From contig CM097885.1 of NCBI GenBank assembly GCA_044892525.1, positions 11,720,001-11,784,000 of the forward strand: a stretch of DNA of 64,000 nt, given 5' to 3'. The stretch comes from Schmidtea polychroa. Taxonomy: Eukaryota. Of the stretch, positions 29,163 to 59,445 are shown one piece after another (the first letter of the stretch is position 1; every line of letters starts with the position of its first letter). Position numbers and translations under genes: made by a program. The notes beneath the pieces are model-generated. The model had not been told where the DNA came from. It saw only the letters and a list, made by a program, of their open reading frames with translations, and ran no database searches.

Positions 29163-29220
29163 TACAACAAGAAGATTTAATATTAAATTTAATGTCTGGT
29201 AATGAAGGATTAGCACCCAT
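28993..29220 (-). CDS. Overprinted small ORF with N-myristoylation signal
   Basis: MGANPS...SSCC; ATG 4 nt after the upstream stop; kept open in element 3 (47982). Confidence 0.5.
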   Translation of the reverse strand: MGANPSLPDIKFNIKSSCCNGEDLDEPGRRSRFWWSGKIKEKSSEFEKGNSEVVIRPACVQFEQTNAETIPNKSL

Positions 29221-29223
29221 TGT

Positions 29224-29712: not shown

Positions 29713-29725
29713 GATTTATATGTTT

Positions 29726-30364
29726 TCAACTTTGTTTTGAACTTTGTTTATATACCATGGCACCTTTTGGGTTGAAAATATCTGTTTTTACCCGTATATC
29801 ATCAGGGCATTGTTGTGTGAAATCGAGAAATATATACCCATGCGGTATTTTCGTGGCATCTTGAAATGCACTGATAAGAAAATTACGGTTATTAGGGTAT
29901 GCTTGTCGTCCAAGAAAATCAATGACAGTTGCATCTCTAGGATTCTTGAAAATAACTAAATATTGTACATTTAAATTACGTGTTCGATGTGCACCACCTT
30001 GATGAAATAGATTTTGTGTTATGAAAATAACTGTTACACCAACATGTCTGCTGATTTTTGTGAATAAATTATTAAAGTCCTTTTCTTTATTGGCTTCTTG
30101 ATACAAATCATCGATAATGATGACATCATCTTTCTTCAAACGACTTGACCAGTTTTTATCAAAGCCCTTTACTATTTTCATGTTTTTCAACTGACAGAAA
30201 CTTGATTGCGTCAATCCGTGTTCTTCGTCGGCGCCCCTATGCCAATAAATATTGTTGAATTTTGTTTTAAACAAATTTGATTTTAGTAATTTACAAACAA
30301 ATAAAGTTTTCCCGCTACCACTTGGACCAACGATTTGGTATACTGCATCATTTCGTAATTCCAT
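29726..30364 (-). CDS. DNA packaging ATPase
   Basis: GPSGSGKT, IIIDDL, SRH, ITQN, FKNPRD. Confidence 0.93.
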   Translation of the reverse strand: MELRNDAVYQIVGPSGSGKTLFVCKLLKSNLFKTKFNNIYWHRGADEEHGLTQSSFCQLKNMKIVKGFDKNWSSRLKKDDVIIIDDLYQEANKEKDFNNLFTKISRHVGVTVIFITQNLFHQGGAHRTRNLNVQYLVIFKNPRDATVIDFLGRQAYPNNRNFLISAFQDATKIPHGYIFLDFTQQCPDDIRVKTDIFNPKGAMVYKQSSKQS

Positions 30365-30469
30365 TTTTTAAAATTTAAACTATATAATTATTGTTTATAT
30401 TGATAATTTAAATGAACTCTGTTTTTAAATACCTATATATATCAAAGTTTTTAAAATTATTTCATTAAA

Positions 30470-30934
30470 ATGCTTTCAAATATAAATTACAGGGCAAAAA
30501 CTGATGTATCAAAAATGGTATTTCCAATAGGGAAACCACAACAACTTATCAATAGAAGTAATAAATATCCAATAATATATTTCAAAACTGGTAAATGTAG
30601 AATTATGGGGTGTAAGGAAATAATCAAAGCTAGTGAATATAATGTTTATGATTTAGAAATACAATCGATAACCGTAACTTCCGATATAGGTTTTTCTTGT
30701 AATTTAAATAAATTAGCTAAATTAATACCATGCTTTTATGAACCAGAATTATTTCCAGCTTTGAGATATATAAAATATAACCCTATGTGTGTAAATATAT
30801 TCGCTAGCGGTAAGATAGTAATTCTTGGAATAAAAAATATTGATTACAAAAGTATAGTTGATAATATCATATCTGAAATTAAATCAATAATTGAAGGAAA
30901 AGAATTTTTAGATTTTTTATTATCACTTAATTAA
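30470..30934 (+). CDS. TATA-binding-protein-like protein
   Basis: Two TBP half-repeats: IYFKTGKCRIMGCK and YEPELFPAL.Y...VNIFASGKIVILG.K. Confidence 0.85.
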   Translation: MLSNINYRAKTDVSKMVFPIGKPQQLINRSNKYPIIYFKTGKCRIMGCKEIIKASEYNVYDLEIQSITVTSDIGFSCNLNKLAKLIPCFYEPELFPALRYIKYNPMCVNIFASGKIVILGIKNIDYKSIVDNIISEIKSIIEGKEFLDFLLSLN

Positions 30935-31042
30935 TTATTTATCATTCAATTAAAACAAAAACATACTGCAATCTGATTGGATGATAAACAATAGTCATAG
31001 GTATAAAAACCCTGTACCATTTCATTTTAATCATAATTCACA

Positions 31043-31462
31043 ATGACCAAGAAAATTTCAAGCACTGAAAAACCAAAAGTAGTTCCAGAACTTGTACAAC
31101 CTGTTCAAATGTTCCACAACTACAAAATGTATTTTTTAAAAGAAGAAATCAATATGAAATTGGTGTCACCGATCAAGCTAATTCCTACCCAATTTCAATT
31201 CTTAACCGGCACGCTTTCAATGTTAGATATTAAAACCATAGATGATGTTTTCAAAAGGTTGAATACGAATCTATCATGCAATCAAAATGCATTTTTCAAC
31301 AACCGATATGCAAAATTTTATGATTCCTTTGATGAAATCAGTTTCAAAGAAAACGAAAATTGGTATATAACAATTACAATCCAAGGATATAAAGTTGATA
31401 ATAATGATGTGTATTCTCCAATTTGGAAAATTATGTCTGCTAGACTTTCACAGTTATTTTAA
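31043..31462 (+). CDS. Hypothetical protein conserved with element 3
   Basis: 139 aa, homologue at 45040-45459; ATTGG and TATAAAA upstream, AATAAA downstream. Confidence 0.75.
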   Translation: MTKKISSTEKPKVVPELVQPVQMFHNYKMYFLKEEINMKLVSPIKLIPTQFQFLTGTLSMLDIKTIDDVFKRLNTNLSCNQNAFFNNRYAKFYDSFDEISFKENENWYITITIQGYKVDNNDVYSPIWKIMSARLSQLF

Positions 31463-31558
31463 TGTTGTATTTAATAAATGTATTTAGTCATATTTGTTTT
31501 CGCTTATATTCTATATTTTCTATAAACAAATATATACTATAGTTTTAAAATACTAATA

Positions 31559-31917
31559 ATGACTACAGAAAAAGGTTAATATGATTAGTTAATTATTGAA
31601 TTATTTAATATTTAGAATTTATAATAAACTTTTTATTGGAAAAATTAGCAGAAATATCTGGTGTGAAAATGGCGGATATATTATCTGTTACAAACGCATT
31701 AAATATAGACTGGGTAGCAGAGAGTGAAGATTCGGAATTTGATGAAACAGATGAAGAAAACACTCAAGATGATGAGGAAAGCATTCAAGAAATTGATGAA
31801 CCTATGGAGGAATTTACGGATACTGAACCATGTGTATATAGGGATTGTATAGATCATGTTGTTGAAAATGTTATGAACTGTGGAGATGATGAATGTGAAT
31901 GTGTTAATAAATTTTAG
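31559..31917 (+). CDS. Acidic protein with Cys tail, two exons (intron 31575-31615)
   Basis: Splicing gives MTTEKEFIINFLLEKLAEISG...; the same intron position is present in element 3. Confidence 0.7.
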
Positions 31918-32007
31918 TGTATATTTAAAGAATAATATTTAGAATTTAGAAAGTTTTGTCTTGAATATTTTTACCAGTAACTTTGTGAGTAGTACATTTG
32001 TAACTTG

Positions 32008-32072
32008 TTGAATGTGAGTAGTACCTTTGCGAGCAGTACCCATAGGGGGACAGAATATCTTGTCGGATAGAT

Positions 32073-32142
<70 letters not shown>

Positions 32143-32143
32143 C

Positions 32144-32221
<78 letters not shown>

Positions 32222-33431
32222 CTTAGAAAATAATAATATGTAATCAACGATTTAAACAAAATTATATTATTACGTATTCTATAATTAAAACAGAAGAATT
32301 ATATAATCAATGATTTAAACAAATTATATAATCATCGATAATTAAAACAAAATTATTAATTCTAAAAATATTAGGCATCGTTCTAAAATTATGACGTAAT
32401 CGTTCTAAAAATAAGAGGCACCATTCTAAAAATATTTGGCATCGTTCTAAAAGTATGACGTAATCGCTCTAAAAATATTAGGCATCGTTCTAAAAGTATG
32501 ACGTAATCGCTCTAAAAATATTAGGCTTCGTTCTAAAAATATTAGACATCGATTACGTAATAGTTCTAAAAATATTAGGCATCATTCTAAAAATATTAGG
32601 CATCATTCTAAAAATATTAGACATCGATTACGTAATAGTTCTAAAAATATTAGGCATCATTCTAAAATTAAAAGGCATCGTTCTAAAAATAATAGGCATC
32701 GTTCTAAAAATATTAGGCATCGTTCTAAAAATATGACGTAATCAATCTAAAAATATTAGACATCATTCTAAAAATAATAGGCATCGTTCTAAAAGTATGA
32801 CGTAATCATTCTAAAAATATTAGGCACCATTCTAAAAATAATAGACATCGTTCTAAAATTATGACGTAATCATTCTAAAAATATTAGGCATCGTTCTAAA
32901 AATATGACGAGTCATTGTCTTTGTTTTAAAAATGTGATGAGTCATCATATTATAGAAATCTATATCTCCTTAGAAAGGTCTTGCACAGAGCTTTAAAATA
33001 AGCTATCGATCAATATAATATGTTGGCGGGAACATTAATCTTTGGGATGACAAAAAGTAGGTCCCCTCTGGATCACTTAATAATATTTTGACAAATAATA
33101 ATAATTTAACTTTAAAAGATGGTGGTCATTAAATGTTAATAACATTAAAACTATTAAAGATATATATGATACCTATAGCTCATTCGAAAGGTCTTGGACT
33201 GAGCTTTAAGATGAGGTATCGGTCAATAAAATCTGTTGGCAGGAACATTAATTTTTGGGAAGAAAAAAAGTAGGTCCCCTCTGGATCACTTAATTAAAAC
33301 AAAAAATTTAATTAAAAAAAAATAAATGACCTTGACCTTTTATTTAAAAAAAAAAATTTTTTCCCCGGGGGGGGGAGGGGGTATATGTGATCTGGAGGGG
33401 ACATGATCTGGATGGCCCACATCCTACTACT
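32008..33431 (-). repeat. Right TIR of element 2
   Basis: Outer ~550 bp almost identical to the left TIR; array and AAT lengths differ. Confidence 0.9.
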
Positions 33432-34682
33432 TTTAATCATAGAGTTTTTAGTTGTTGAATAATGAAGACATCTTTTACATGTTCCTCCTCCACTAGTTGG
33501 ATTCTCTGGTGATGTAAAAGCTTGAAAGTTTTTTATTAAAACATAATGTTGATTATTTTGTTGTTCCAAGATTAAAAGATATATCTCCCTAGTGTTATCC
33601 TGGGGTTCGTTATCTCTAACTTCATAATCTGAAATATAAATTGGAATAATTTCTCTGCTATTAACATGTTTCCCTTTAACACGTTCATAAATATTAATTT
33701 TAAGATTATTTAAACTTTCAAATTTTGGAATGTCTTCTAGTTTCATTGGATGTTTGAATCCTTTGGGAAATATTAATTCATTTTCATATTGTTTGTATTT
33801 TGAAACTCTTTGAGGGTTTGATTCTTGAGGGTGTAAATGTGCAAGTATTGACCAGACTAAACATTTGTTATCATTATTCTGTATGTTTATAACATTTTTA
33901 GATTTAAAGGGTGTAGGAATATAAGATTTAGGATTAGATGGTAATCCTCTCCAATAATCAATCACTAAAGTTTGGAAAGAGTTGAATACTAAGTTTGAAT
34001 CTCCTAATTCATTTTCAACCTCTTCTTGTTTTGCTTCTACTGCTTGAATTATTTCTTTGATGGTTTTATCAAATCCTTTAGTTGAAAATAAATATTTAAA
34101 GGGTATTCCAATTTCAACATCTAAAGGTGTTGTCTTTTCTTCTGCTCCTCGCCAGTATTTTGCTTTGATTATAATTTTATATTTTATAACATTATACCTT
34201 GTCGGTTTTTAATTTTTTAAAGCTTCAGTGAAAGAATTTTTAATATTTTTTTTATTTTTATTTATATATTCTCCAGGAGTTATAGGTCCATTGATTTCTA
34301 ATTGAAATTCATCTACATGATTAAAATCATCCCAGTTATATTTTTCTCTTTCAACATGATCAGGTTCTCCTTTTGAATGACATTCCTCATCGTCAGAATT
34401 TTGTTTTTTATTTTTACATTCTTTTATATGTTCTAAATAATAGAAATTTACTTTTGTTGAAAAGTTACAGTGAGAACATGTAAATATTTCTCTATTTTTC
34501 CCGATACAATTTTCAAAATGTTTATTATATCCAGAATGTAGAAATCTTCCTTTACATTTAGGACAAAGTTTTGAATTTGTATCATTAAGATTATTTTCTT
34601 TTAATAAATGAGCTTTCGATTTTAAGTGAGAAATCAATCCAGTTTTATTTTTAAAAACTTTATTACAAATATTACAATTCAT
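33432..34682 (-). pseudogene. pPolB of element 1, N-terminal part
   Basis: Zn fingers (CNICNK...HLKSKAH), in-frame TAA 34209-34211, NIQNNDNKCLVWSI, HYVLIK, CKRCL; joins in frame to 19545 after removing element 2. Confidence 0.9.
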
Positions 34683-34794
34683 TTTTAGAAAAATATTTTT
34701 ATTGGATACCCTGTTTTGATTTTTTATGATGTTTTTATATTTATTTTCATAATGTGACAGTATAATTTTTAGATTTTTATAACAAAAATCCAAA

Positions 34795-34875
34795 GCCCGA
34801 TAGCGCAGTGGGCTAGACTGGCACAGTGGTTCAAATAGATAGCGGTTCAAATCCTAACTACGATTAGTTTTTTTT
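34795..34875 (+). ncRNA. tRNA-like Pol III cassette 3
   Basis: A box TAGCGCAGTGG 34801, B box GGTTCAAATCC 34844 (second GGTTCAAAT at 34828), T8 terminator 34868-34875. Confidence 0.6.
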
Positions 34876-42541: not shown

Positions 42542-43259
42542 TGTTGAGGTCCGTAAATTAAAATAAAATTTAAATGAAATTTAGGTTAATAATTTTAAAA
42601 AAAAGTAAGTGAAGAAAAAAGACAAATAAAAGCGGGATCATGCACAGAATCAATAGTAAAGGAAAGTGTGGTGGAAGCAGTATTAGAAAATGCCAAAAGC
42701 AATTACGAAAGGCAAGAATCCGGAAATCCGAGAAAAATCAATAAATGGTAAAATCATCGAAATCGAATGGGGAAAACGGGACAGGTATAGATTAGCTAAT
42801 GGTCAACAAGATGATGATTAAGGATTTATCAGAAAATGGTTAGGAAGGGTCGAAAAGCATTCAAATGTATGAAAACAGAAAACGTTAATTAATTAATTAA
42901 TTGGCTAATGGAAAACCCGAGCTAATGGGAAACCCGAGCCAATGGAGAACCCGAGAGATGAAGGAAACCCGAGCTGGGTAAACAAGAAGAAAAGCCAACA
43001 GAAGGAAGATTTGGGCCCATTACCTTGACACAATGACTAATTGGAAAAGAGCAAGGAGGAGATAGCGCGTGTAGGAAGACCAGAAGGGTCATTAATTATC
43101 TGGATTCGTTGGACCATTATAAGTGACAGCTGAAGCAGATACGTGGAAGCAAATGTCAAGTGAAAGATTAGCTCGGCAATAACCATTTGTCATCCCGATT
43201 TCGAGGAGTATATAAGGAAAGGGAAAATCAGAAAAAATCGGCATTTTGCCTTAGCTAAG
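42542..43259 (+). mobile_element. 5' part of an LTR interrupted by element 3
   Basis: Starts TGTTGAGG like 36066; similarity to the LTR at ~850-875 stops at GCTAAG 43259. Confidence 0.7.
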
Positions 43260-43727
43260 AGTAGGGTATTGTGTGGAGTCGGGAACAAAGACATATGACG
43301 TCATCGATGACGTCACAAAGACATATGAGTCATACCCCGGGGAGGGGTTTTTTAACAAAGACCATGACTCATCGTGATGACTCATCGTGGTGACTCGTCG
43401 TGGTGACTCGTCGTGGTGACTCATCAAGGTCATATTATTATTTTTAAAAGATATTATTATTTTATTTTTAAATTTTTTCAAAGTTCCCGCCAACGAAAAT
43501 TATTCATCGATAGCTCATTTTAAAGCTCAATCCAAGACCTTTCGAATGAGCTATTGAAGGTATCATCATCATTAATATTGACAAAGTTATTATCGTTTTC
43601 CCGAGACCATTTTCAATGTCATATAATTATTATTAATCTATATACTCCGAGTCTATCCGACAAAATATTCTGTCCCTCTATGGGTACTGTTCGTAAGGGT
43701 ACTGGTCACGCTCAACAACTCGCAATG

Positions 43728-43759
<32 letters not shown>

Positions 43760-43770
43760 GTTGTTGTTGA

Positions 43771-43813
<43 letters not shown>

Positions 43814-43997
43814 GTTGTTGTTGATATTATTATTATTATTATTATTATTATTAGTTTTAGCACACACTCATTATACCAATATGAATATAGTTTTCATGGT
43901 GTATCAAATCAAAACTCCTATTTTTATAGTCTATCAACCAATCAAAATCATATGGTAGTAATATAAATAAAGCAGTATATTTTAAATTAATTTAGAA

Positions 43998-44526
43998 ATG
44001 TCGCAACCAAATTTTAGTGAAAATGTTCTAAACGGAATTGTCACCGCGAATATAGTCGACAGCCTCAATTTCCTGATCAATCGAACTGAACAAATCATTG
44101 AAGGTGAACATATCGATTATCATCAAATGATGGAGATAGAATCCCTGGAAACCAAGAAGTTATACTTCAATAGAATATTTCAGTGTCTTTTCGATGAAGA
44201 CATGAAATGGACAAGGATAATTGTAGGATTCACCTACATGAAGATAATCATTGCAAAAGGTCAACATGACTCAGAACATTATTATCAGTGGTCTTTAGAA
44301 GTAAGATTTCTTTTATAATCTATATTTTATTAATATTCATTTCTAGATAATCAAGTCCAAGTTTACCCCATGGATAGAAGCCAATGGCGGATGGGGTGTA
44401 TTAAATAAACTGGCCTGCAATTTTAAAGAAACTGATGAAATCAAAAGAAAAATGAAAAACTATATAAAACTTACAACTGGAGTTGTTATAATGTATATTT
44501 TCTGTAGATATATGAATAAAAATTAA
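43998..44526 (+). CDS. Bcl-2-like protein, two exons (intron 44301-44346)
   Basis: BH1-like LFDEDMKWTRIIVGFTY, BH2 PWIEANGGW, C-terminal hydrophobic anchor; 160 aa spliced. Confidence 0.85.
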
Positions 44527-44571: not shown

Positions 44572-44906
44572 TTAAAATTTATTAACACATTCGCAATCGT
44601 CATCTCCACATTTCATTATATTTTCAACGACATGATCAATACAATCATTCGTAATATTATCTTTAGGTTCCTCTATAGGTTCATAGATTTCTTCATCAAT
44701 TTCTTGAGTTTCTTCATGATCGTCAAATCCTGAATCTTGACTTTCAACTATCCAGCCGATATTTAAGGCATTTGTAACAGATAATATGTCCTCAATTTTT
44801 ACACCAGCTATTTCTGCTAATTTTTCCAACAAAAAGTTGATTAATAATTCTAAATAATAAATAATTCGGTATTTAATTAATCATGTTAACCTTTTTCTGC
44901 AGTCAT
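44572..44906 (-). CDS. Acidic Cys-tail protein, two exons
   Basis: MTAEKE|LLINFLLEKLAEIAG; homologue of 31559-31917. Confidence 0.7.
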
Positions 44907-45039
44907 TTTCATCACTTTAAAACTATATTATAAGTTTGTTTATAGATTGTCTTTGTTAAATTTGCATGTCATTTGCATTAATGTTGCAATTAATAAAGAG
45001 AAAAAACAAATATGACTAATACATTTATTAAATATAACA

Positions 45040-45459
45040 TTAAAATAGTTGTGAAAGTCTAGCAGACATAATTTTCCAAATTGGAGAATACACATCATTA
45101 TTATCAACTTTATATCCTTGGATTGCAATTGTTATATACCAATTTTCGTTTTCTTTGAAACCGATTTCATCAAAGGAATCATAAAATCTTGCATATCTGT
45201 TGTTGAACCAGGCATGTTGATTACAAGATAGATTCGTATTCAACCGTTTGAAAACCTCATCAATAGATTTAATATCTGTCATTGAAAGCGTGCCGGATAA
45301 GAATTGAAATTTAGTTGGAATTAGCTTGATCGGTGACGCCAATTTCATATTGATTTCTTCTTTTAAAAAATACATTTTATAGTTGTGGAACATTTGAACA
45401 GGTTGTACAAGTTCTGGAACAACTTTTGGCTTTTCAGTGCTTGAAATTTTCTTTGTCAT
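45040..45459 (-). CDS. Hypothetical protein
   Basis: Homologue of 31043-31462. Confidence 0.75.
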   Translation of the reverse strand: MTKKISSTEKPKVVPELVQPVQMFHNYKMYFLKEEINMKLASPIKLIPTKFQFLSGTLSMTDIKSIDEVFKRLNTNLSCNQHAWFNNRYARFYDSFDEIGFKENENWYITIAIQGYKVDNNDVYSPIWKIMSARLSQLF

Positions 45460-45731: not shown

Positions 45732-46142
45732 TTATTTTGATACAATCTGACTCGAGTGGTGATTTCTCAGAGTCTTCACCAAACACCATTCAACATATTG
45801 TTGATAACGGAAATTGCAACAGCTACATCCGAAAATGCAAGGAGCCTCTGGTTTCATTTCTTTCATCCCCTTCCTATCTTGATATCCCATAGAAAGGTGT
45901 TTATTATATCGAATATCCAGATTCGTGTTTGGTTGTATACCAAATCCGGAATGATAGCTGGATCTCTATCTTGTAGAATTTCATTTAATTCTGGATAATA
46001 GAAGCATAATCTTTGCAGGATAATTGATTGATACTGATCTGTAAAAATATATATATATTAATGTAATAATAAAAAATTTGAAATTACCATAATTTGCATG
46101 CTCTTTCATTGAGGTGATTGCGGAACTTTGTATGTTGTACAT
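45732..46142 (-). pseudogene. Spliced accessory gene, probably frameshifted (intron 46039-46087)
   Basis: MYNIQSSAITSMKEHANY|DQYQSIILQRLCFYYPEL...; a Cys-rich tail PCIFGCSCCNF follows in another frame; absent from element 2. Confidence 0.45.
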
Positions 46143-46263: not shown

Positions 46264-46728
46264 TTAATTAAGTGATAATAAAAAATCTAAAAATTCATTT
46301 CCTTCAATTATTGATTTAATTTCAGATATGATATTATCAACTATACATTTGTAATCAATATTTTTTATTCCAAGAATTACTATCTTACCGCTAGCGAATA
46401 TATTTACACACATAGGGTTATATTTTATATATCTCAAAGCTGGAAATAATTCTGGTTCGTAAACACATGGTATTAATTTAGCCAATTCATTTAAATTACA
46501 AGAAAAACCTATATCGGAAGTTACGGTTATCGATTGTATTTCTAAATCATAAAGATTATATTCACTAGCTTTGATTATTTCCTTACACCCCATAATTCTA
46601 CATTTGCCTGTTTTGAAATATATTATTGGATATTTTTTACTTCTATTGATGAGTTGTTGTGGTTTCCCCATTGGAAATACCATTTTTGATACATCAGCTT
46701 TTGCCCTGTAATTTATATTTGAAAGCAT
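46264..46728 (-). CDS. TBP-like protein
   Basis: Intact homologue of 30470-30934. Confidence 0.85.
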   Translation of the reverse strand: MLSNINYRAKADVSKMVFPMGKPQQLINRSKKYPIIYFKTGKCRIMGCKEIIKASEYNLYDLEIQSITVTSDIGFSCNLNELAKLIPCVYEPELFPALRYIKYNPMCVNIFASGKIVILGIKNIDYKCIVDNIISEIKSIIEGNEFLDFLLSLN

Positions 46729-46832
46729 TTTAATGAAATAATTATAAAAACTCTGCTATATATAGTTATTTTAAAAAGGAGTTCATTTAAATTATCAATA
46801 TAAACAATAATTATATAGTTTAAATTTAAAAA

Positions 46833-47470
46833 ATGGAATTACGAAATGATGCAGTATACCAAATCGTTGGTCCAAGTGGTAGCGGAAAAACATTATTTGT
46901 TTGTAAATTACTAAAATCAAATTTGTTCAAAACAAAATTCAACAATATTTATTGGCATAGGGCGCCGATGAAGAACGTGGATTGACACAATCAAGTTTCT
47001 GTCAATTGAAAAACATGAAAATAGTAAAGGGTTTTGATAAAAACTGGTCAAGTCGTTTGAAGAAAGATGATGTCATCATTATCGATGATTTGTATCAAGA
47101 AGCCAATAAAGAAAAGGATTTTAATAATTTATTCACAAAAATCAGCAGACATGTTGGTGTAACAGTTATTTTCATAACACAAAATCTATTTCATCAAGGT
47201 GGTGCACATCGAACACGTAATTTAAATGTACAATATCTAGTTATTTTCAAAAATCCTAGAGATGCAACTGTCATTGATTTTCTTGGACGACAAGCATACC
47301 CTAATAACCGTAATTTTCTTATCAATGCATTTCAAGATGCTACAAAAATACCTCATGGGTATATATTTCTCGATTTCACACAACAATGTCCTGATGATAT
47401 ACGGGTAAAAACAGATATTTTCAACCCAAAAGGTGCCATGGTTTATAAACAAAGTTCAAAACAAATTTGA
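46833..47470 (+). pseudogene. Packaging ATPase, 1-nt deletion near 46960
   Basis: GPSGSGKT; AGGGCG versus AGGGGCG in element 2. Confidence 0.9.
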
Positions 47471-47483
47471 AAACACATAAATC

Positions 47484-47978
47484 ATGTTTTCAAAAACAAG
47501 GATATCGAGTAAAAAACAACCAAAAGTTCCACCAACAACTAGTTATACTCCATCTAAAGAACTTATTACAGAAAATTTTCCTGCAATGAATCTTATTTCG
47601 AAAAATCCTAAACCTAAACCTAAACCTAAAACCACTAAGAAAGTAAAAGTTGTTAAAAATCATCGGAGTTTCCCGTTTTTCAATACATTGTTAAAGGCAC
47701 CCAGTATGAAAAGAAACAGTATTTTACAATCTTTTCCAAATTATGTTGTCGATGATTTACTCGATATTATACTTAAAGTAGTCAAAGGCAAGATTAAAAT
47801 CAGTAAATCTAAAAAGCAATTATTGAGTAAACATAGGAAACCTTTGCTATCATTAGTAAATAACAAAAATCGTCAACAAATGAGAAAAATTATATATAAA
47901 CAACAAAGGGGATTTATCGGTGCATTGATACCTTTAGCAATATCATTATTAGGTGGAATAATAGGAAGTCGATCATAA
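47484..47978 (+). CDS. Basic core/membrane-active protein
   Basis: Homologue of 29224-29712. Confidence 0.75.
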   Translation: MFSKTRISSKKQPKVPPTTSYTPSKELITENFPAMNLISKNPKPKPKPKTTKKVKVVKNHRSFPFFNTLLKAPSMKRNSILQSFPNYVVDDLLDIILKVVKGKIKISKSKKQLLSKHRKPLLSLVNNKNRQQMRKIIYKQQRGFIGALIPLAISLLGGIIGSRS

Positions 47979-48039
47979 ACAATGGGTGCTAATCCTTCAT
48001 TACCAGACATTAAATTTAATTTTAAATCTTCTTGTTGTA

Positions 48040-48204
48040 ATGGAGAAGAATTGGACGAACCCAGAAGACGAAGCCGGTTTCGGTGGAGTGGCAAAATTAA
48101 ACAAAAGAGTTCCGAATTCGAAAAAGGAAACCCAGAAGTGGTTATCAGACCAGCTTGCGTAATATCAGTAATCTAGCCGACTCCAATTTCTATCCATCAA
48201 TTTA

Positions 48205-48251
<47 letters not shown>

Positions 48252-48878
48252 GGTAAAGAATTCTACAACAGTAAAGTCAAGCAAATCCTCAATAAATTGA
48301 AAATAAACCATTACTCGGTACATTCTCAATACAAAGCTGCTCATGTTGAAAGATTTAACAGAACATTGAGAGATAGATTAAAGAAATTGTTCGTGCATCA
48401 AGGTAATAAAAAATGGGTAAATGCTTTAATGAAAATAATAAAAAGTTATAATCATTCATCACATCGAGGACTGGATGGATTGAGACCGGTTGATATTACA
48501 TCAAAAACAACCTATTCTAAGAAATCTGTAAAAATTGCAAAACCTAAATATAAAGTCGGTGACCATGTTAGAATTAGTAAAATTAGTGCATCACCATTTA
48601 TTAAAAATTTCGATACAAATTGGAGTGATGAAGTCTTTGTAATTTCAAAATTAAATACTAGCCAGAGTCCTGTAATGTATGTCATCAAAGACAATGATAA
48701 TAATATTGTACAAGGGAAATTTTATGAGCAAGAATTACAAGTTATTCCTCCTCCAAAAGTATTTAGAATTCAAAAAATATTGAAAACTAAAAATAAAGGC
48801 AAGGATAAACAATACTATGTCAAATGGCATGGTTATCAAAACCCATCATGGATATCAGAAAAGGATCTAGTAAAGTGA
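48040..48878 (+). pseudogene. Integrase with internal deletion
   Basis: 5' region breaks at ~48160; the first catalytic region is lost; resumes at the intron acceptor ~48252 (GKEFYN). Confidence 0.9.
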
Positions 48879-49891
48879 ATTTTTATACTATTTTACCGAG
48901 CAATAGTTGCCCGCTTATTCATCCAGATAATCAAGCCAGTAAATTTATGGTCAATCTCCAGAATCCGATTTCTTTAAATGGTGACTGGGAAGTTGCACTG
49001 CAAGATTATACATTCGTGTACAACAAATTCCCATTTTATAGTCAATGTAAGATTGATTTCAAAACGAATATTGTGAAAACATGTAGCGGTATCTTTATTA
49101 TCAGTAATTATGATAAAACATATCGTATTCCGAATCAAATATTAGATTCACATTGCTATATGTTTTACAAGGATGGATTAAATATCAGTTGTGATTTTAA
49201 ACCATTTACAATAACATTCGAATATATTGAAGATGCCAAACGAATGGGTTGCAATAAGTTGAAAAATATTGTTACGGAGACCGAGTATTTATTACGTTTT
49301 AATCTATTTGAAGCAAACAGTGTAATGAAAGAAGAAATCAAAATATCTGTGTCGTATAATGATGAAGTTGAAGAATCTTTTACCTTTGCTGATGAATTAT
49401 ATTTTGATAAACTTGATGATTTACTTAACTATTTAAAGTTCAATTGTTCACACATATTTAAAAATTTGGAAATTGTGAAAGATTTGATGTTTACCTTCAG
49501 TTTGAATGAGGATATTTGCGAAGTTACATTTGATAAAAATTTGGCAAATTCACTTGGATTAGATAAGCAAAAATATCGAGAAAAATCGACTGGTATACGC
49601 AAACCAAGAATACTAGAACATCATCAACAAATGTTCATATATACTAATATTATCGAGCCTATAATTGTTGGTGATTCCAGTGTTCCTCTTTTGAAATCGG
49701 TATGGATTGGAAAATATGAACATGATGAAGTTGTCAATATAAATATCGATAATCCCATGTATTTACCAATAGCAAGTTCATGTATAAACAATATAGAAAT
49801 AAATATTCGTGACGATAGTGGAAAACTTATAAACTTTCCAAAAGACTCAAAAACTCATTTGACATTACATTTTCGTAAAGTAGATGGCTAA
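48824..49891 (+). CDS. Minor capsid protein (penton)
   Basis: Homologue of 27094-28161. Confidence 0.9.
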   Translation: MAWLSKPIMDIRKGSSKVNFYTILPSNSCPLIHPDNQASKFMVNLQNPISLNGDWEVALQDYTFVYNKFPFYSQCKIDFKTNIVKTCSGIFIISNYDKTYRIPNQILDSHCYMFYKDGLNISCDFKPFTITFEYIEDAKRMGCNKLKNIVTETEYLLRFNLFEANSVMKEEIKISVSYNDEVEESFTFADELYFDKLDDLLNYLKFNCSHIFKNLEIVKDLMFTFSLNEDICEVTFDKNLANSLGLDKQKYREKSTGIRKPRILEHHQQMFIYTNIIEPIIVGDSSVPLLKSVWIGKYEHDEVVNINIDNPMYLPIASSCINNIEINIRDDSGKLINFPKDSKTHLTLHFRKVDG

Positions 49892-50243
49892 TTCTGATAT
49901 TATTAGTATGTATAGTGATAGCCAATCTGGCGGTGAATTATATTTTATTGGTAAACAGTACGGATCAGGTTGGTTAAAAACAATAGGGAGATTTGCCCTG
50001 CCTATTCTTAAACGTATTGGTAGTTTTGGCATGAAAACTGCTAAAGATGTTATTATGAATGAACAGAAAATATTACCATCCATAAAAACAAATGCTTTAG
50101 CTGAGTTAGGGAAGGTTCTACCTGGAGTTGCTGGTATGTTTCAAAAAGATACACCTCCAGTTCCAGCTCCAAAGCGTAAAAGACATGGAATATCGCGTAT
50201 AAACAAACGAATGAAAGGACATGGAACTATATTTGCAAAATGA
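49884..50243 (+). CDS. Small basic core-like protein
   Basis: Homologue of 26739-27101. Confidence 0.75.
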   Translation: MANSDIISMYSDSQSGGELYFIGKQYGSGWLKTIGRFALPILKRIGSFGMKTAKDVIMNEQKILPSIKTNALAELGKVLPGVAGMFQKDTPPVPAPKRKRHGISRINKRMKGHGTIFAK

Positions 50244-51459
50244 TTTGTGGTAAATCCGAATTATGTATATTTGATAGACCATCGCCTCAAGCTGTAATAG
50301 AATTTGGGCATTTGAGGAAGTTTTTCCTATGAATTCAATTACTGATAGTAGAAATGATATCGAGTTTTATATTAATGGTTCGCAAACCGAATATTTAGAT
50401 TTGAACGATACTTTATTGACTGTTCAGATCAAGGTTGTAGATAAAGATAGAAAAGTTTTGGATGCCAATACAGATGTAATACCGAACAATTTCATGTTTC
50501 ATACTCTGTTTAAAGATGCAGTGTTGGGATTTAATAATATCAAGATTGAGGGCGGAAATAATACATTCATTCACAAGGCATTAATAGAAACTATTTTAAA
50601 TTACAATTCTGATACTAAAAATACATGTCTTACACCTATGGGTTATGGCAGTGATGATGAAAGAAAAAAGTGGGTTAAAGGCTCAAAATCATTCACTATG
50701 TGCTCATCATTACAACTCGATTTTATGGATCAACCGAAATATTTGCTACCGGGAGTTAATGTACACATTAGACTGAAAAGGTCCGATTCTGCATTATCTC
50801 TTACTAGTGCAACTGATGCACCAATATGCCAATTAGTTGATGCAAAATTATTGGTGAGAAGAGTTCGAGTAGACCCGTCAGTATTAGCTGGTCATCAATT
50901 GGGTCTTAATTCAAAACATGCAATTTATCCTTTAAAAACAAAGGAAATTGTACAATTTGCTATTGCTAAAGGTGCTTCATCATTCTATAAAGAACAAATA
51001 TTTGGTGACAGAAGAATGCCTAATTTTATTCTGGTAACATTTCAAAGTGAAACGCAATATAATGGATCTTATACTGCTTCCAGCTCAATTTTCAAATATT
51101 TTGGTGTTACTTCATTGACTTTGTCGAAAAATACTGATTATAGAGAAACATATACTCAAGATTTCGAAAGCGATAATTACTGTGCGACATATATGCAGAG
51201 TATTGTTAGAAATCTGGGTTACTTAGATAAAAACTTGAATTGTGGAATAACTCTAGAAGATTTTAAAAGCAAATATCTATTTTTCACATTTGTTTTAGCC
51301 CCTGATTTTGATTTAAATCAGAGTCAACTACCTCAAAATGGAAATTTACGACTGGATATTAGGTTTGCAAGAGCCATTACTGAACCGGTACATGTTATAA
51401 TATATGGAGTATTTGAAAATGAAGTTCAAATTACTGCAAATAGAACCGTGCTAGTATAA
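50240..51459 (+). pseudogene. Major capsid protein, frameshift near 50307
   Basis: MICGKSEL start at 50240; one base short relative to element 2. Confidence 0.9.
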
Positions 51460-51486
51460 ATGTATATAGAAACATAAAAAGTTGTC

Positions 51487-51871
51487 ATGGAGTAAGTTTT
51501 TTGATAATGTTTAATTTTATTAAAGTAGTTCTGTTCAGGTTAATCGAATTGGAAAACAAATATTAGGAAATGAATTTATAGGTGTTTTTCCTCTCGATAA
51601 AATTCCTTATTTGAGCAATAATCAAGCCATAATCGTCAATACTCATTCATCTCATCTTGGTGGAGAACATTGGATAGCTATATATGTGAAACCTAGTAAT
51701 ATATTCGTATTCTATCCTATGGGTTTCTATTATCCTTCTTTGTTGATATCAAAACTTCAAACAATTGGGAAACCTATTGTATATAATAAAACTATGTTTC
51801 AAAATCCATTGACTCAAACATGTGGTCAACACTGTTTGGCATAGTTGTTGTATAAAAAATTTGATGGTTAA
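51487..51871 (+). pseudogene. Adenain-like protease (intron 51492-51528), TGG>TAG at 51842
   Basis: Homologue of 25110-25493; FDP changed to FYP. Confidence 0.85.
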
Positions 51872-52299
51872 TAAATGTATACTGTATGATTTTTATTTGT
51901 TGACTATTTTAATTATTTGTTACTTATTATTATTATTATTAATATTATTATTATTAATATTATTAATATTATTATTATTTTGAAAAAATATTATTATTTT
52001 AATTAATTTTATTATTCAAATAAATATTATTAATTCTACATAAAGACTACCTATGCCTGAAGCATGCACAGTGCAAGTTAACAAAGGCATGACTAACAAA
52101 GGCAGTCACATGTAATTTCTGAGTGATTTACATTACATGCATGCATGCGTGTGATTGGTTGAGAGAGTAAAATATTCAGTGTATATGTGAGTAGGTAGAT
52201 AGTAGCGTACTGCAGCAATGACCCCGGGGGGGGGGGGGGGGGGGTTCTGCTGCAACTTTTTTTTTTGCTGCAACTTTTTTTAATAAACTAGTTACGGCT

Positions 52300-55200
52300 T
52301 GTTATGTAATAAACTAGTTTAAATTATATTCCCCGATTCTCAATACCCCACTAATTATTATCACTTATATTCCCCGATTCTCAATACCTCACTAATTATT
52401 ATCACTTATATTCCCACGATTTTCCACTATTTAATCATTTGTATCCCCTCGAATTTCCATTAATTATTCGCCTATAACCCCCACCCCGATTTTCTACTTA
52501 TATTCCACCGATTTTGATTAATTATTCACTTAAAACATCCCCACAAATATTTGTTTTAAAAGTTTTTTTTTTATTAAAGTGTTAATTTTTAGAAAATAGT
52601 TGCAATACATCCATTCTTATCAACCTTCATCTTATCTATACTACTTCTCATTATCTACCTCCATTAATGAATTATTCTACCAATTATTTTTACCCATTTG
52701 AATCGAGTAATGAATAATTTCCTCACTTTAATGAAGATTCTTACCACCTTCATTGTTAATTTTATCAAAGTTTAAAGAATAATTGTCTTTTCATTGCTTA
52801 CCACTTTAGAATTTTTATCGAAATTTATGATAATTTGACTAATTCAATGAAAAATGAGTTAATTAATATATACTCTGAGTTTATCCGACAAAATATTCTG
52901 TCCCCCTATGGGTATTGCTCACAAGGGTACTACTCACATTCAACATGTCGTAAGTGTATTAGTCGTAAAGGTATTTAATGCTTTTATTTGAATGATTATT
53001 TAGAAAAATTTGATGTTTAAGGTATTCATAATTTTTAGAGTTGATGGTTTTATTCAAGTAAATTTCTATCTTTTTTGTGAATTTTTATCGTTTTTTGTGA
53101 ATTTCTATTATTTTTGCGGATTTCTATTATTTTCCGTAATTTTTTTGATTATCTGTAATTTTTGTGGATATCTATCATTTTTGTGAATTTCCTATTATTT
53201 TTGCGAATTGCTATAATTTTTATGAATTTTTATCGTTTTTGTGAATTTCTATCATTTTCATGAATTTTTATCATTTTTGTGAATTTCTTTGATTTTTGTA
53301 AATTTCTATTATTTTTGTGGATTTCATGATTATTGAATGAATATTTAATAATTCAAAGTTAGTTCTAAGATAAATTTAATAAATTTCTTGATAATTGGAT
53401 GTATTTTTAATTTTTAATGAGGTTAATAATTAGAGTTTGTACAATAATCAAGTGGTAGGATAAATTTTTATGAGGATATTGAACAATTTTCTAAGAATAT
53501 TTACACATTGATGCACTTTAAAAAACATAAGCTAAAAAACCAGTTAACTTTATCAAGGACTTTAAATTTACTTGATAATTATTGTAGGATATACAGAAAT
53601 TTAGTTTGTTGTTATTGCTTGAAAATGATTGGTTGAATAGCTGAAGAATTATGATCAAACAATATATATCATCTCCAGTTAGGTATTTGATGGTAAATAT
53701 TTGTAGAAAATAATCAGTTTATTATGTCTGTTACAAAGTCGCCTTTAGCGTCAAAATGTGTTTTTAAAATAAATTTTAATTTTAAAATACCGCAACGTAA
53801 TATATTTTTCCTCTGCCCTTCCATGATTTTGATTGGTTAGTGGGCTCTTATTATTTAGCTACTAAATTATTTCAATGGAAGAATATTTGGTGTCTATAAC
53901 AATTAAGTCATATTTTTGAAGTTCTTTAAAGATTTTAAGACTGAATTGAATTAAAGGAGGATTCAAGTGGGTAGAATTGAAGGATATATTCGGTTAGATG
54001 TTTAAAGAGGTAGAATATTTGCTGAGAGATCGATTAAGATGGGAATATATGATCTTTTGAGGGGATATAGTTGGTTAGATTTAATGAAGGATGGGTTAAG
54101 ATGGAAATAGATCATTGTAAGGGAGATGTAGTCGGTTAGATTAAATGAGGGATAGGTTAAGATGGGAATATATATCATTGTAAGGGAGATATAGTCGATT
54201 GACTTTAATGAAGGATGGGTTAAGATGGGAATATAGTCGGTTAAATTTAATGAGAGATGGGTTAAGATGGGAATATATGATTTTTTTTAATGGTGATGTT
54301 GGTAAAATATCATTGTTTTAAGGGAAATGTCAATTAGTCAGTTATGAATCAATAATAATGTGAAATTTTATCGTTTTATTAGATTGTGATTAATGCACAG
54401 TAAATTAATTTAGAACAATGTTTTATTAAGTAGGGATAATGATCGATTTACTTGGTTTTGATAATGAAATCTTTACAGATAATTGGGATTGATATCAACT
54501 TTAAATTATTTTTTTTCTCTTTATTTAAGCGGAGAATGACAAAAGTTTAGAAATAGGGACTTAAAACATTGATCTTTATTGGAAGAAATCTTGATTTTAA
54601 TTAGTAATTAAATCGGTTGAATATTGGTAAAAATGATCATTTGAAGAAATATATTTTATTGAATGGATAAATTTAATCTTTCAATGGGATCTAGTCAGTT
54701 ATATTGTAGTAATATTTATTTAAAATATCGAGTACAGTGATTAACAAAAATTTAATTATAACCACTTTTATCATTAGATTTTATAAATTATTTAGGGTTA
54801 ATGATTTTACATGTTTTATAGGGAAATATTCGTGATAATAGGAATTAAAGTTAGAATTATAGTCATTTAAATGGGACTTTAAGCAATCTTATTAGTCTGA
54901 GGGAATATATGATCCTTTACGGGTACTTATCATTAAAATATCAATCTTTAAATATTGATATATTTAGGGGAAATGATGCTTTTTAGATGATTTTAATGAA
55001 TTATTTGTAATAATATGAATTAAGGGTAGAAATATAGTCATTTAAGGGATTTTAAGGAATCTTATTAGTTTGATGAGAATATATGATCTTTAACAAGTAT
55101 TTATCATTACAATACCAATCTTTAAATATTGATATTTTTAGGGAAAATGATGCTTTCTAGATGATTTTATTAGAGAATTCACTTGGATATACCAATTATT

Positions 55201-56526
55201 GCTATTTAAATGAATTTACTGGTTTGTTAGATGTTATCATTAGTTATCTAGTCTCTTTTGGAATTTAATGAATATTATTTTTATTGTAGATTGCTGACTT
55301 TGATAATTGTAATGAATTTATACTGATTTTTTGAATATATTGAGAAATCAGTCAATCAATTTGAGTACATGTATTACTTTTACAAAAATAATTAAAATTA
55401 ATTTTATTCAATCTAAATCTAGATCTTATTTCAAAACTTTTATTAATTTATTATCTTAGTTGATTCAACTTGAATGATCAGTATTTTTTTTATTTACTGG
55501 ATGATTAATGATTAGAATTTTTTCCTGTCCATTAATTAAATTTTTATGATATTTATTTTGAATAATTTAAATTTTTACAATAATTTAATCAAATTTTACC
55601 TAGTTATTGATGCCTTGAGTTCAATTAATTTTCCATCTAATTTTTCAAGTGATGAGTATTTGCTTTTAAAGATCAATTTGTTAGTACATAGTTGTAGGTT
55701 GTAAGTAGTTGGTTGACTTTTTAGATTTTGATAAGAAAATAGTGTATGCGATGAAGAATATTTTGTATTTAATTGCTATTATTTTTATGTGTTGTTAGTT
55801 GATTGTTGGTACTAAGTTGTTGGTATCTTGTATTTGGTAGTAGGTACAATGTTGTTTACTGATTGTTGTTATATAGTTGTAGGTTGATAATGCTTAGTAC
55901 CTGGTTGTTATCGGTTGTGAGTACTTGGTATCTGGTTGATAGCTTGTTGATAGTACTTAGTAACTAGTTAATGGGTAGGTGGTGGTTGAGTGTTACCAAT
56001 ACCCTTACGACTAGTACCCTTACGACCTGTACCCTTAGGGGGTCAAAACATCCTGTCGGATAAAGTCAGAGTATATATAATAAAACTGATCAACAATAAG
56101 TATTTATTGAATGCGATTTTTACATTGCAATAATAAGTCAGTAGTTATCATTTAAAAGAAGAATGTTTTGTAAATTAGAATTCATTAGTCTTTCATTGTA
56201 ATTATTTTGAATTCCACGTGGTGTTTTAAAGTGGTTGAGTTGTGGTTTTTTGATGAAAATCAACATTTTTGTTAAATTTAGACATTTTGAAAAGGTTTTT
56301 CTACTGATTGTAATTAAAATTATTATAGAAGCTGTATAAAAAATATTAATTTAAAAAGCATTTCATAAAATACAATAAAGAATATTTAGTTGATTGTAAG
56401 TAGATAGTTGTAAGTATGTGGTTGTTTGAGAGTTAATTAGTACGTGGTATCATGTTGAAAGTATTTGTTAGCACCTAGTTAAAAATATTTAGTAACCGAT
56501 TGTTGGTAACTGTTGAATTATTATTA

Positions 56527-56566
<40 letters not shown>

Positions 56567-59280
56567 CATTTAAATTTTCATTAAAAATTACATTTCTCAA
56601 AAAAATTGGTGGTTATTCAATATTTTGATAATAAATTTAAAAATCTTACTTTAATTTACTTATTTAGCTTTAATTAAAAATTTGAACCATTGGTTACTTA
56701 ATTTTAGATTTTGAACCTTAATTTACTTATTTAAAAATTATTACTTTAATTTACTCATTTAGCTTTAATTTAAAATTAAAACCATTGTTTTCTTTAATTT
56801 AAAATTTTGAACCTTAATTTACTTATTTAAAATTTTTAACTTTACTTATCCTTAATTTACCTAATTATTCTTTATTTCTTAATTCTACACCATAATTTAC
56901 TTAACAACTAAATATAATCCTTATTTTCATATTTTACCAATAATTTCATGTGGTCATTGATTAATTGACGAAGATTTGCATCTAAAATTAACATTGAATA
57001 TCCCAGAAAACTTTCATCCTAAATTGACTTTAACTTTAATATTTTAGATCATTGATTAGTTAATTTAAAAATTAAACATTAATTTACCTATTTAACCAAT
57101 AATTTCATGTGGTCACCTGGTTGTAAGTACTTGGTATCTAGTTAATGGGTATGTGGTTGTAGGTGCTTAGTAGTTGGTTGATGATGCTTAGTAGTTGGTA
57201 ACTGGTTGTAGGTACTTAGTAGTTGGTAACTGGTTGTTGGTATCTAGTTGTTAGTATCTAGTTGTAGGTAACTGGTTGTTAGTAACTAGTTGTATGTACT
57301 TGGTAGGTGGTTGTTGAGTAGTTGGTATCAGGTAACTAGTTGTTAGTAACTAGTTGTAGGTTGTAAGTGTTTGGTATCTAGTTGACAGTGCTTAGTACCT
57401 GGTTGTTGTCGGTTGTAGGTACTTAGTAGTTGGTAATTAATGCTTAGTACCTGGTTGATGTTGGTTGTGAGTACTCGGTATCTGGTACCGAGTTGGTTGG
57501 TTGTTTTGTTGTATGTACTTGGTAACAGGTAACTGGTTGTTAGTAACTAGTTGTAGGTTGTAAGTGTTTGGTATCTAGTTGACAGTGCTTAGTACCTGGT
57601 TGTTGTCGGTTGTAGGTACTTGGTATCTAGTACCTAGTTGGTTGTAGGTACTTAGTAGTTGGTAATTAATGCTTAGTACCTGGTTGTTGTTGGTTGTGAG
57701 TACTTGGTATCTGGTAACTGGTTGTTAGCTGGTTGATGTTTGTTGTAAGTACTTGGTATCTAGTTGTAAGTACTTGGTAGCAGGTAATTGGTTGTTAGTA
57801 ACTAGTTGTAAGTACTTGGTAGCAGGTAACTGGTTGTTAGTAACTAGTTGTAAGTACTTGGTAGGTGGTAGTAGGTACTTGGTTGATGTTTGTTGTAAGT
57901 ACTTGGTATCTAGTACCTAGTTGGTTGTTTTTGGTTGTTAGTACTTAGTAGTTGGTTGTAGGTACTTGGTAGGTGGTAGTTAGTTGTTAGCTAATTGTTG
58001 TGGGTTGTTAGTACTTGGTATCAGGTAACTGGTTGTTAGTAACTAGTTGTAGGTATCTGGTTGTTAATACATGTTCGTAAGTTACTGGTTGTTAGTACTT
58101 AGTAGGTGGTTAATAATGCTTAGTACCTGGTTGTTGTTGGTTGTATGTACTTGGTAGTTAGTTGTTAGTACTTGGTACCTAGTTGGTTGTATGTTTTTGG
58201 TTGTTGGTACTTGGTATCAGGTAACTGGTTGTAGGTATCTGGTTGGTAATACATGCTCGTAAGTTACTGGTTGTTGGTACTAAGTTGTTGATTTGTTGTT
58301 GAATTATTATTAAAATTTGTCTTTGAAAAATATTTCATAAAAATTTTCAATAAAAATTATCTTAAAAATTTCCATCTAAAATTATCATTGAAAAATATTT
58401 CTTAAAAATTTCCATTAAAAATTAACTTAAAAAATTATTTCATAAAAATTTCCATTAAAAAATTTCAATTCTCAAACACCTATTATTTCAACGTTTTGTT
58501 AATAAATTTAAAAATCTTACTTTAATTTACTTATTACATTACTTTAATTTACTTATTTAAAAATTATTACTTTAATTTACTTATTTAAAATTTTTTTACC
58601 ATTGATTACTTAATTTAAAAATTTGGACCTTAATTAACTTTAATTTAATTTTTAGAACCTTAATTTACTTTAATTTAAAAATTTGGACCATTATTTAGTT
58701 TAATTTAATTTTTAGAACCTTAATTTACTTTAATTTAAAAATTTGGACCATAATTTACTTTAATTGAAAAATTTGAACCATAATTTACTGTAATTTTATT
58801 TTTTAGAACCATAATTTACTGTAATTTAATTTTTTAGGACCATTATTTACTGTAATTTAATTTTTTAGAACCATAATTTACTTTATTTTAATTTTTTAGA
58901 ACCTTAATTTACTTTAATTTAAAATTTAGAACCTTGAAAATATCTTGAGACCTTAAATTACCATGCTTTTTTAGTGTAGACCACCTATTTCTCAGGACCA
59001 AGGAGACTCGCCTCACTATAGTTTGAAAAATCCTTGGCTTTTTTAGTGTAGACCACCTTTTTGTATTGAAAATATCCTGAGACCTTAAATTACCATGCTT
59101 TTTTAGTGGTAGTCGGATTTTTGTATTGAAAAATTTTTATTGTATTGAAAATCCCAGGACCATCGTTTTTGTATAGAAAAAAAAAACGATAAAAATTCAC
59201 AAAAAAGATAGAAATTTACTTGAATAAAACCATCAACTCTAAAAATTATGAATACCTTAAACATCAAATTTTTCTAGGGG
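52300..59280. repeat. Non-coding block of successive degenerate tandem arrays
   Basis: Arrays at ~52320-52520, 53060-53330, 53960-54290, 54860-55170, 56630-56900, 57110-58290 (GT-rich), 58500-58930, 58935-59110. Confidence 0.85.
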
Positions 59281-59445
59281 GTTTGCTGCAGTGGGCTACT
59301 AACTACCTACTTATGTGTGTGTCTATATTCTCATTGGCTGGGACAGGAAAATATTCATTCTCTTTATAAACATCGACAAATCTAAAATTTGTCACAATTA
59401 TTTTAAAATTTTAAAAATCTATTAATAATAATAATATTTAACAAC

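Follow-up and report, generated by a model that had tools for sequence, protein, structure and literature searches.

A Polinton in the genome of the planarian Schmidtea polychroa carries, close to its left end, a two-exon gene for a Bcl-2-like protein. Sequence comparison and structural models together point to a gene that was captured from the host by way of mRNA, gained an intron and would act as a tail-anchored pro-survival protein, binding BH3 helices of the Bak/Bax type and keeping cells alive during replication of the element; we regard this composite reading as probable rather than secure. The window is the whole stretch of 64,000 nucleotides that was analysed. Coordinates are window positions throughout, and the right end of the element is numbered beyond 64,000 (window-equivalent).

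Exon 1 (43998-44300, plus strand) comprises 101 codons and encodes helices 1 to 5 and half of helix 6 of the Bcl-2 fold, including a degenerate BH3 and the BH1-like motif LFDEDMKWTRIIVGF (44187-44231, plus strand). The intron (44301-44346, plus strand) is 46 nt long, in phase 0 and 85% A+T, with GT-AG borders (GTAAGA...TTTCTAG). Exon 2 (44347-44526, plus strand) supplies 59 amino acids and the stop codon: the end of helix 6, the BH2 motif PWIEANGGW (44368-44394, plus strand), a basic linker, a hydrophobic tail (about 44470-44505, plus strand) and a short basic end. The unspliced ORF (43998-44318) encodes 106 amino acids, and the spliced product of the window copy has 160, with the BH1-like, BH2 and tail motifs; the original prediction of a 46-nt GT-AG intron that extends the shorter frame to the longer one is found in the sequence as claimed. 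Upstream lie a CCAAT box, AACCAATCA (43936-43944, plus strand), present in 6/6 compared copies including those of a family at 41% identity and of an intronless lineage, and a TATA box, TATAAATA (43962-43969, plus strand), present in 5/5 compared intron-bearing copies and not seen in the intronless lineage. The two boxes form a putative promoter.

The gene starts 738 bases inside the left end (43260) of the Polinton. The element is preceded by the 6-bp target site duplication (TSD) GCTAAG (43254-43259, plus strand), which is repeated after the right end at window-equivalent 65822, and it opens with the left terminus AGTAGG... and the terminal inverted repeat (TIR; 43260-43890, plus strand, inner limit approximate), which stops short of the Bcl-2 gene. 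The window copy has one Bcl-2 gene, and its right TIR is without it. From left to right, the element contains the Bcl-2 gene, three accessory ORFs, a TBP-like gene, the ATPase, the integrase with chromodomain, the capsid block, the protease, a 7.4-kb insertion and PolB.

The accessory ORFs lie on the minus strand. The first is a convergent, acidic ORF (44572-44908); its candidate 41-nt intron (44890-44850) is retained in three sister copies. The second, of 139 amino acids (45040-45459), adjoins the Bcl-2 gene in the intronless lineage too, and the third (45732-46110), with a candidate 49-nt intron (46087-46039), is missing in window element 2. Both candidate introns are GT-AG and kept in sister copies; together with the Bcl-2 intron they suggest that three genes of the block may be spliced. 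Contigs of X2, a run guessed to be RNA, show a poly(A)-like loose end at 45013, where the 139-aa ORF has its 3' end, and so hint that the accessory block of this Polinton family is transcribed.

The TBP-like gene (46264-46728, minus strand; PF00352, E 3.9e-15) is compact, and a TBP-like gene also occurs at 30470-30934. The core block (46830-51844, plus strand) consists of the ATPase, a 164-aa ORF, the integrase, a 355-aa ORF, a 119-aa ORF, the capsid-like ORF and an adenain-type protease, with rve and Chromo domains in the integrase, Pox_A32 in the ATPase and Peptidase_C5 in the protease. The double-jelly-roll (DJR) capsid-like ORF (50329-51459, plus strand) is open from its ATG and has a DJR-like Atlas match of 0.97. 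The inserted DNA (51995-59428, about 7.4 kb, no strand assigned) is absent from the sister copies R1 and R7; within it lie a unit with 96-bp identical inverted ends (53001-53096 and 59181-59276) and 14-bp and 30-bp tandem arrays. The protein-primed PolB (60317-64000, plus strand) contains stops, continues past the window end and is 30% identical to the PF03175 polymerase of element 1 (E 1.6e-71). The core genes are broken, as had been stated: a frame change near 46960 disrupts the ATPase, about 108 codons are missing from the integrase, and two in-frame stops interrupt PolB.

The family has the hallmarks of Polintons, with AG..CT-ended TIRs and 6-bp TSDs (GCTAAG in the window, ATATTG in R1, TCCGTG in R7), as well as the gene set of protein-primed PolB, retroviral-type integrase, packaging ATPase, adenain protease and DJR capsid. 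Window element 2 (24982-32089, minus strand) belongs to the same family in inverted orientation and has an end variant without the Bcl-2 gene and a 77-aa ORF; sequence comparison agrees with the earlier statement that the gene is absent at this matching end. Element 1, which occupies 7895-20972 and 32068-34853, represents a different Polinton family with DJR capsid, integrase, ATPase and PolB, and its 1.4-kb end recurs inverted at 32068-33441.

Exon 1 is predicted to form a Bcl-2-like fold around a central helix 5. Against PF00452, exon 1 of the window alone reaches E 0.0045 and 18 bits, below the 31.4-bit cut-off, which is exceeded by sister copies read across the intron (34.6 and 33.1 bits), by the intronless lineage (32.7 bits) and by the host bcl2-like gene. 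The best Atlas clusters for exon 1 are Bcl-2 clusters (score 0.92, with recognition below the mark), and a 10-row profile finds Bcl-xL at E 5e-9 along with 104 representatives. The exon-1 model has a pLDDT of 87, obtained with an 81-row alignment rich in ordinary Bcl-2 proteins, and its top 15 VIA rows consist entirely of Bcl-2 proteins, cellular or viral (Z 7.1-9.1, where values of 7-9 are common for helical bundles). A family-only model of the intronless L114 has a low pLDDT of 52, and Bcl-xL/Bcl-2 still rank first; Foldseek gave no match at E <= 0.001 for either model. The Bcl-2 fold anticipated earlier is thus matched by profiles and by structure prediction, the model covering exon 1.

The BH1 motif reads KWTR in place of the canonical NWGR. 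At this place the host gene has RWSR, the intronless lineage CWSK and the relative P0004 KWSQ, and the BH1 glycine is present in 62 of the 84 representatives with a parsable BH1. The host RWSR and the KWSQ of P0004 imply that the glycine was lost before capture, which leaves only serine to threonine as the element's own change; the idea of an element-specific step from NWGR to KWTR gives way to a change that is mostly inherited. Every intron-bearing subfamily retains the BH1 Trp and Arg, BH2 and the tail anchor, except for one decayed copy, L159 (WSQ). In the alignment to Bcl-xL, the Gly-Asp positions of BH3 are occupied by Ile-Asn, unlike the intact BH3 of Bax/Bak-type proteins, and the lack of a usable BH3 motif argues against a killer role. 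The tail has a Kyte-Doolittle mean of 1.6 over 15 amino acids (1.8 in the host tail) and basic flanks.

The 15-residue linker between helices 1 and 2 of the host gene is down to 3-4 residues in the old and intronless lineages and to zero in the window lineage. In the exon-1 monomer model, helices 1 and 2 are fused into one helix spanning residues 6-34. The absence of the linker may hint at a swapped dimer like that of F1L. A homodimer prediction for exon 1 (alignment not used, fold uncertain) scores 0.00 and speaks neither for nor against it. The model aligns with DPV022 at Z 9.1 (rmsd 3.8, 91 aligned) and with F1L at Z 8.0 (rmsd 4.3, 92 aligned), in both cases from residue 7, and with Bcl-xL at Z 8.4 (rmsd 2.2, 85 aligned) only from residue 14-15. 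The domain-swapped poxviral F1L and DPV022 and other viral Bcl-2 proteins (E1B-19K, BHRF1, A179L) are described as having a compact fold and eroded BH motifs (PMC11209288, in the part covered), as here. The set is 6-14% identical to the Polinton protein and shows no sequence kinship with it, the Z values are tied, and the Polinton dimer is hypothetical.

In the preferred reading, host Pol II would transcribe the gene from the CCAAT and TATA promoter, as an early gene, and the host would splice the transcript. The basic-flanked tail would insert into the mitochondrial outer membrane (or the ER), and the groove of helices 2 to 5, with its BH1 Trp and Arg kept, would bind the BH3 helices of host Bak/Bax-type proteins. 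A cell in which a de-repressed element replicates its linear DNA would then survive long enough for copies to be made and integrated. The BH1 glycine, which lets BH3 helices pack, is replaced by threonine here and serine in the host, and this counts against groove binding.

The lost glycine, the degenerate BH3 and the small remaining identity to the host protein (about 23-25%) also favor a different function for the spliced Bcl-2-fold gene, one outside apoptosis: damping of innate immunity or autophagy, or action at mitochondria through another surface, as for poxviral N1. Functions of the NF-kB type that do not use the groove are described for Bcl-2-fold proteins in the parts of the literature covered (PMC7022251, PMC11209288). 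Such a role is credible yet unlikely: the host donor is itself without the BH1 glycine, poxviral proteins without BH motifs are reported still to bind BH3 (PMC11209288, in part), and the BH1 Trp/Arg, BH2 and tail anchor persist wherever the intron-bearing subfamilies have not decayed as L159 has.

The probable donor is L102, a single-copy, two-exon cellular locus with a 2,972-nt GT..AG intron directly after the GGW of BH2 and with no Polinton genes in the 20 kb around it. A Pfam scan of the genome found cellular Bcl-2 loci, LTR polyproteins and two Polinton lineages; in tblastn with exon 1, L102 alone was matched among the eight cellular loci (E 3e-7), together with zero LTR loci. L102 is the orthologue, at 89%, of P0120, a 'bcl2-like protein' of Schmidtea mediterranea (ACW83059.1, UniRef C9WPR4) that may be planarian bcl2-1, and P0120 has the same join after GGW. 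Exon 1 aligns with P0120 residues 43-126 and exon 2 with residues 127-182, abutting without gaps (E 8e-10 and 2e-9). This gap-free colinearity with P0120/L102 lends support to the capture from the host that had been proposed, and it fixes the splice register. Twelve alternative frame-keeping GT..AG pairs were dropped, the gap-free abutment on P0120 being given by 44301/44346 only.

The host and Polinton genes resemble each other over 140 gap-free residues, in the basic-flanked tail, in BH2, in the degenerate BH3 and in a non-canonical BH1 (WSR in the host, WTR in the Polinton). They differ in that the host gene is single-copy, with a 3-kb intron after GGW and a protein of 184 amino acids with a 15-residue helix 1-2 linker, whereas the Polinton gene has more than 1,000 copies, an intron of 41-55 nt located 16 codons earlier and a protein of 160 amino acids without the linker; identity between the two is 23-25%.

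The Polinton Bcl-2 genes are continuous through the host intron site, tail included. On this comparison the Polinton intron, 16 codons before the GGW site, is not the host's: an intron interrupts the host gene right behind GGW, a point at which the Polinton gene is unbroken. GGW is followed by GT in five of the eight cellular loci checked, so the host intron looks ancestral and the element copy is likely to derive from mRNA. A second Polinton lineage (L113-L118) has an intronless Bcl-2 gene, 46% identical to L102, which adjoins homologues of the 139-aa ORF and of TBP in an element with 1.5-kb TIRs. The simplest reading, and a likely one, is intronless capture via mRNA followed by gain of the short intron in one lineage.

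Phylogeny agrees weakly with capture from the host. The intron-bearing lineage forms one group in both trees (99; 100/98). Polinton rows, L102 and P0004 group with an SH-aLRT of 88 in a quick 116-row tree and, in a more careful tree of 29 rows, at an open node (82/57), and a single clade of all Polinton rows has p-AU 0.51, which fits one or two captures. P0020 and P0022, spurious or fragmentary, were left out of alignment A2 and the trees. The phylogenetic comparison with host genes that had been proposed shows an intron position unlike that of the host, and tree support is weak.

The direction of transfer may instead be reversed or tangled, with the host gene a domesticated element gene or both genes derived from a third mobile source such as the Bcl-2 domain of Burro-type LTR elements. 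The open root is compatible with this, as are the unnamed intronless relatives of the P0006 cluster on contigs of up to 13.7 kb and the LTR polyproteins of this genome that carry a Bcl-2 domain. We nevertheless consider it quite improbable, given that the host GGW intron is common to four other cellular loci, that the LTR domain is distant in both trees and that, of the eight cellular loci, the exon-1 search reached L102 alone. Origin from the Burro-type domain was rejected on the distance of the domain in both trees and the lack of an LTR match in the same search.

Burro giant LTR elements of planarians are reported to carry a BCL2-like motif or domain (PMC6431247, in the part covered), which makes them a second kind of planarian mobile element with a Bcl-2 domain, and such polyproteins are present in this genome; like the 89% orthologue, they point to a host near Schmidtea mediterranea. 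Their domain sits in a polyprotein of more than 2,400 amino acids, far from the Polinton gene in both trees, and likely represents a separate capture. One Burro-like LTR polyprotein, L187 (G000:C1:6414000-6423999), combines a Bcl-2 domain with viral fusion glycoprotein, protease and RT domains, and the PF00452 matches include many ORFs of this type.

Beyond this genome, word-index protein searches yielded just three unnamed exon-1-like proteins. The P0006 and P0100 clusters (unnamed, ENA/Logan) comprise Bcl-2-like relatives whose contigs reach 13.7 and 16.3 kb, respectively; the full-length P0006 type has the tail and no break at GGW, and may be cargo of another mobile element. Relatives of P0006 or exon 1 were absent from viral contigs, as were relatives of P0006 from metagenome contigs. 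Within the genome, L091-L097 (G000:C4:89.95-90.83 Mb) are seven near-identical copies of a cellular-type Bcl-2 gene with the canonical NWGR, a segmental repeat or an assembly effect.

The intron is conserved in position and free in length. At all 68 loci with both exons, GT..AG occurs at the identical place, with lengths of 42, 44, 45, 46, 48 and 51 nt; these loci are best matches, hence biased toward intact copies, and represent subfamilies whose exon 1 is 61-100% identical. The same position holds a 41-nt intron in an older, decayed family of about 41% identity, one copy of which occupies the same place in a full Polinton. Among the first 100 junction matches listed, intron lengths are 44-55 nt, and by eye 99 begin with GT and all 100 finish with AG. 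Lengths across all families compared thus span 41-55 nt, so the frame of exon 2 relative to exon 1 shifts among subfamilies and exon 2 is usable only through splicing. The unspliced tail, read past exon 1, varies in length and sequence between subfamilies. A genome-wide search for intronless versions of the intron-bearing subfamilies (exon-flank pattern with a 0-9-base gap) gave 0 matches.

Selection was estimated as dN/dS by the Nei-Gojobori method on five copies from four subfamilies, giving nine between-subfamily pairs. For exon 1 the ratio is 0.05-0.15 where dS is finite (it is saturated in three pairs), with all p < 2e-9; for exon 2 it is 0.11-0.45, with p < 0.05 in seven of the nine between-subfamily pairs and p 0.07 in the other two. 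Other genes of the element have ratios of 0.10-0.34. By these estimates purifying selection acts on both exons, and on comparative grounds (conserved position, free length, restored frame) the GT-AG intron is real.

The intactness of the gene beside broken core genes had been put forward as evidence in its own right, a point that falls away: the window copy is 98-100% identical to its 40 best DNA matches and is simply young, so intactness proves little, and the evidence for selection is the between-subfamily dN/dS. The youth of the copy would equally suit a neutral passenger whose 'intron' is an unspliced insertion, with only the 106-aa ORF, or nothing, being made. The Bcl-2-less end variant is common, and contigs of X1 cross the intron, with no 44300/44347 joint among the 15 of 61 joints listed, a listing of four runs, all contigs, that is dominated by the DNA-like run X3 and in which the RNA runs are guessed as such. 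Such a passenger is very improbable in the face of an exon 2 under purifying selection in a frame reached by splicing only, of GT and AG kept over intron lengths of 41-55 nt and of an unspliced tail that differs between subfamilies in length and sequence. Equally doubtful is the idea that the protein acts as a decoy or a pro-death factor by neutralising the host Bcl-2-like protein, for example for late particle release or the killing of competitor cells: it is host-derived and without its helix 1-2 linker, a loss that could uncover new surfaces for dimerisation, but it has no BH3 motif, the Gly and Asp positions being replaced, and viral Bcl-2 homologues are described mostly as pro-survival (PMC11209288, in the part covered).

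The gene is abundant. The exon-flank pattern with a 34-59-base gap has 1,081 matches genome-wide (539 + 542), with 0 in the reversed control; first-look candidates, which are not copy numbers, amount to 2,378 (exon 1) and 3,867 (capsid). Among the five DNA matches at 100%, those on contigs C242 and C147 share the layout of the window and probably duplicate the window locus. Convergent pairs of matches within about 16 kb were counted by eye, with 11 among 150 matches in one listing and 6 among 150 in another. In all four pairs fetched (R1, R2, R6 and R7) the Bcl-2 gene lies inside both TIRs, which measure 1.4, 1.5, 3.2 and over 3.7 kb, with perfect 6-bp TSDs in two of the copies.

The same subterminal place is held in subfamilies of 41-100% identity. 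The full junction of the Bcl-2-less end of element 2 recurs at no fewer than 40 places, 97-100% alike, and the spread of this end indicates that the gene is dispensable at least in cis. The subterminal Bcl-2 slot is conserved, sometimes doubled and sometimes lost. Its earlier description as a variable slot is therefore half right: the place is fixed across subfamilies, and a Bcl-2-less end has been amplified too. A 9.4-kb capsid-less derivative (L133-L134, G000:C1:203692000-203701500) has 3.2-kb arms that each contain the Bcl-2 gene, the three accessory ORFs and a piece of PolB, an arrangement that suggests arm copying. Such copying, which extends the TIR inward, is the most likely origin of copies that have the gene in both TIRs, and the dosage from the doubled gene may or may not be selected. 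Three head-to-tail copies (L130-L132, G000:C2:131875000-131905000), 11 kb apart and >99% alike, are polymerase-truncated and Bcl-2-bearing.

Bcl-2 cargo is already in print for related elements. Adintoviruses are stated to encode homologues of Bcl2 and IAP (Starrett et al. 2021, PMC8502044), and the part of this source covered labels Bcl2 on three supplement map rows, near the names Astyanax and Steinernema among others. There too, Bcl2 is an accessory gene in an element with integrase and PolB; a planarian element, a donor gene, an intron and a TIR duplication go unmentioned in the covered part of that account. As regards the adintovirus definition, the present Polinton has a chromodomain integrase. 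Spliced cargo is likewise known, nematode Mavericks being described by Widen et al. (bioRxiv 10.1101/2022.07.12.499685) with intron-containing genes (wasp, krma) close to the left TIR. That cargo is read, in the part covered, as host-derived with its introns included (10.1101/2022.07.12.499685), whereas the planarian Polinton lacks the host intron and has a new one at a different site. Intact vertebrate Mavericks are reported as intronless (PMC8097293, in the part covered). Literature searches, with Repbase and subscription journals outside their range, found no publication on a planarian Polinton Bcl-2 gene, and the main texts of PMC11161782, PMC8097293 and PMC11071296 contain no mention of Bcl-2. 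What the present analysis likely adds is a named donor, an mRNA route with later intron gain, an inherited BH1 change, the TIR duplication and the lost linker.

In the portions of the literature covered, Bcl-2 cargo of animal Polintons has so far been listed without donor tracing or tests. Here the probable donor, the spliced-mRNA route and the later intron gain can be followed within a single genome in which both intronless and intron-bearing lineages occur, which makes a clean case of intron gain in a virus-like element of a kind usually described as having intronless genes. A bolder reading, which we find improbable, is that an essential survival gene (if ACW83059.1 is bcl2-1) has been made into an obligate F1L-like swapped dimer, spread to >1,000 loci and often present twice per element, that would raise the threshold for cell death when Polintons are de-silenced in differentiation or on loss of PIWI. 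If that were true, a transposon would be a working part of planarian cell turnover and regeneration. RNAi of bcl2-1 in planarians is reported to cause systemic cell death and lysis (PMC6970515, PMC4993586), and planarian Polintons are reported as PIWI targets that become de-silenced in differentiation (PMC8532177), each in the part of the source covered. More generally, purifying selection on an anti-death gene suggests that active Polintons trigger the death of host cells, much like lytic or replicating viruses, and in planarians RNAi against a multi-copy gene offers a way to probe this.
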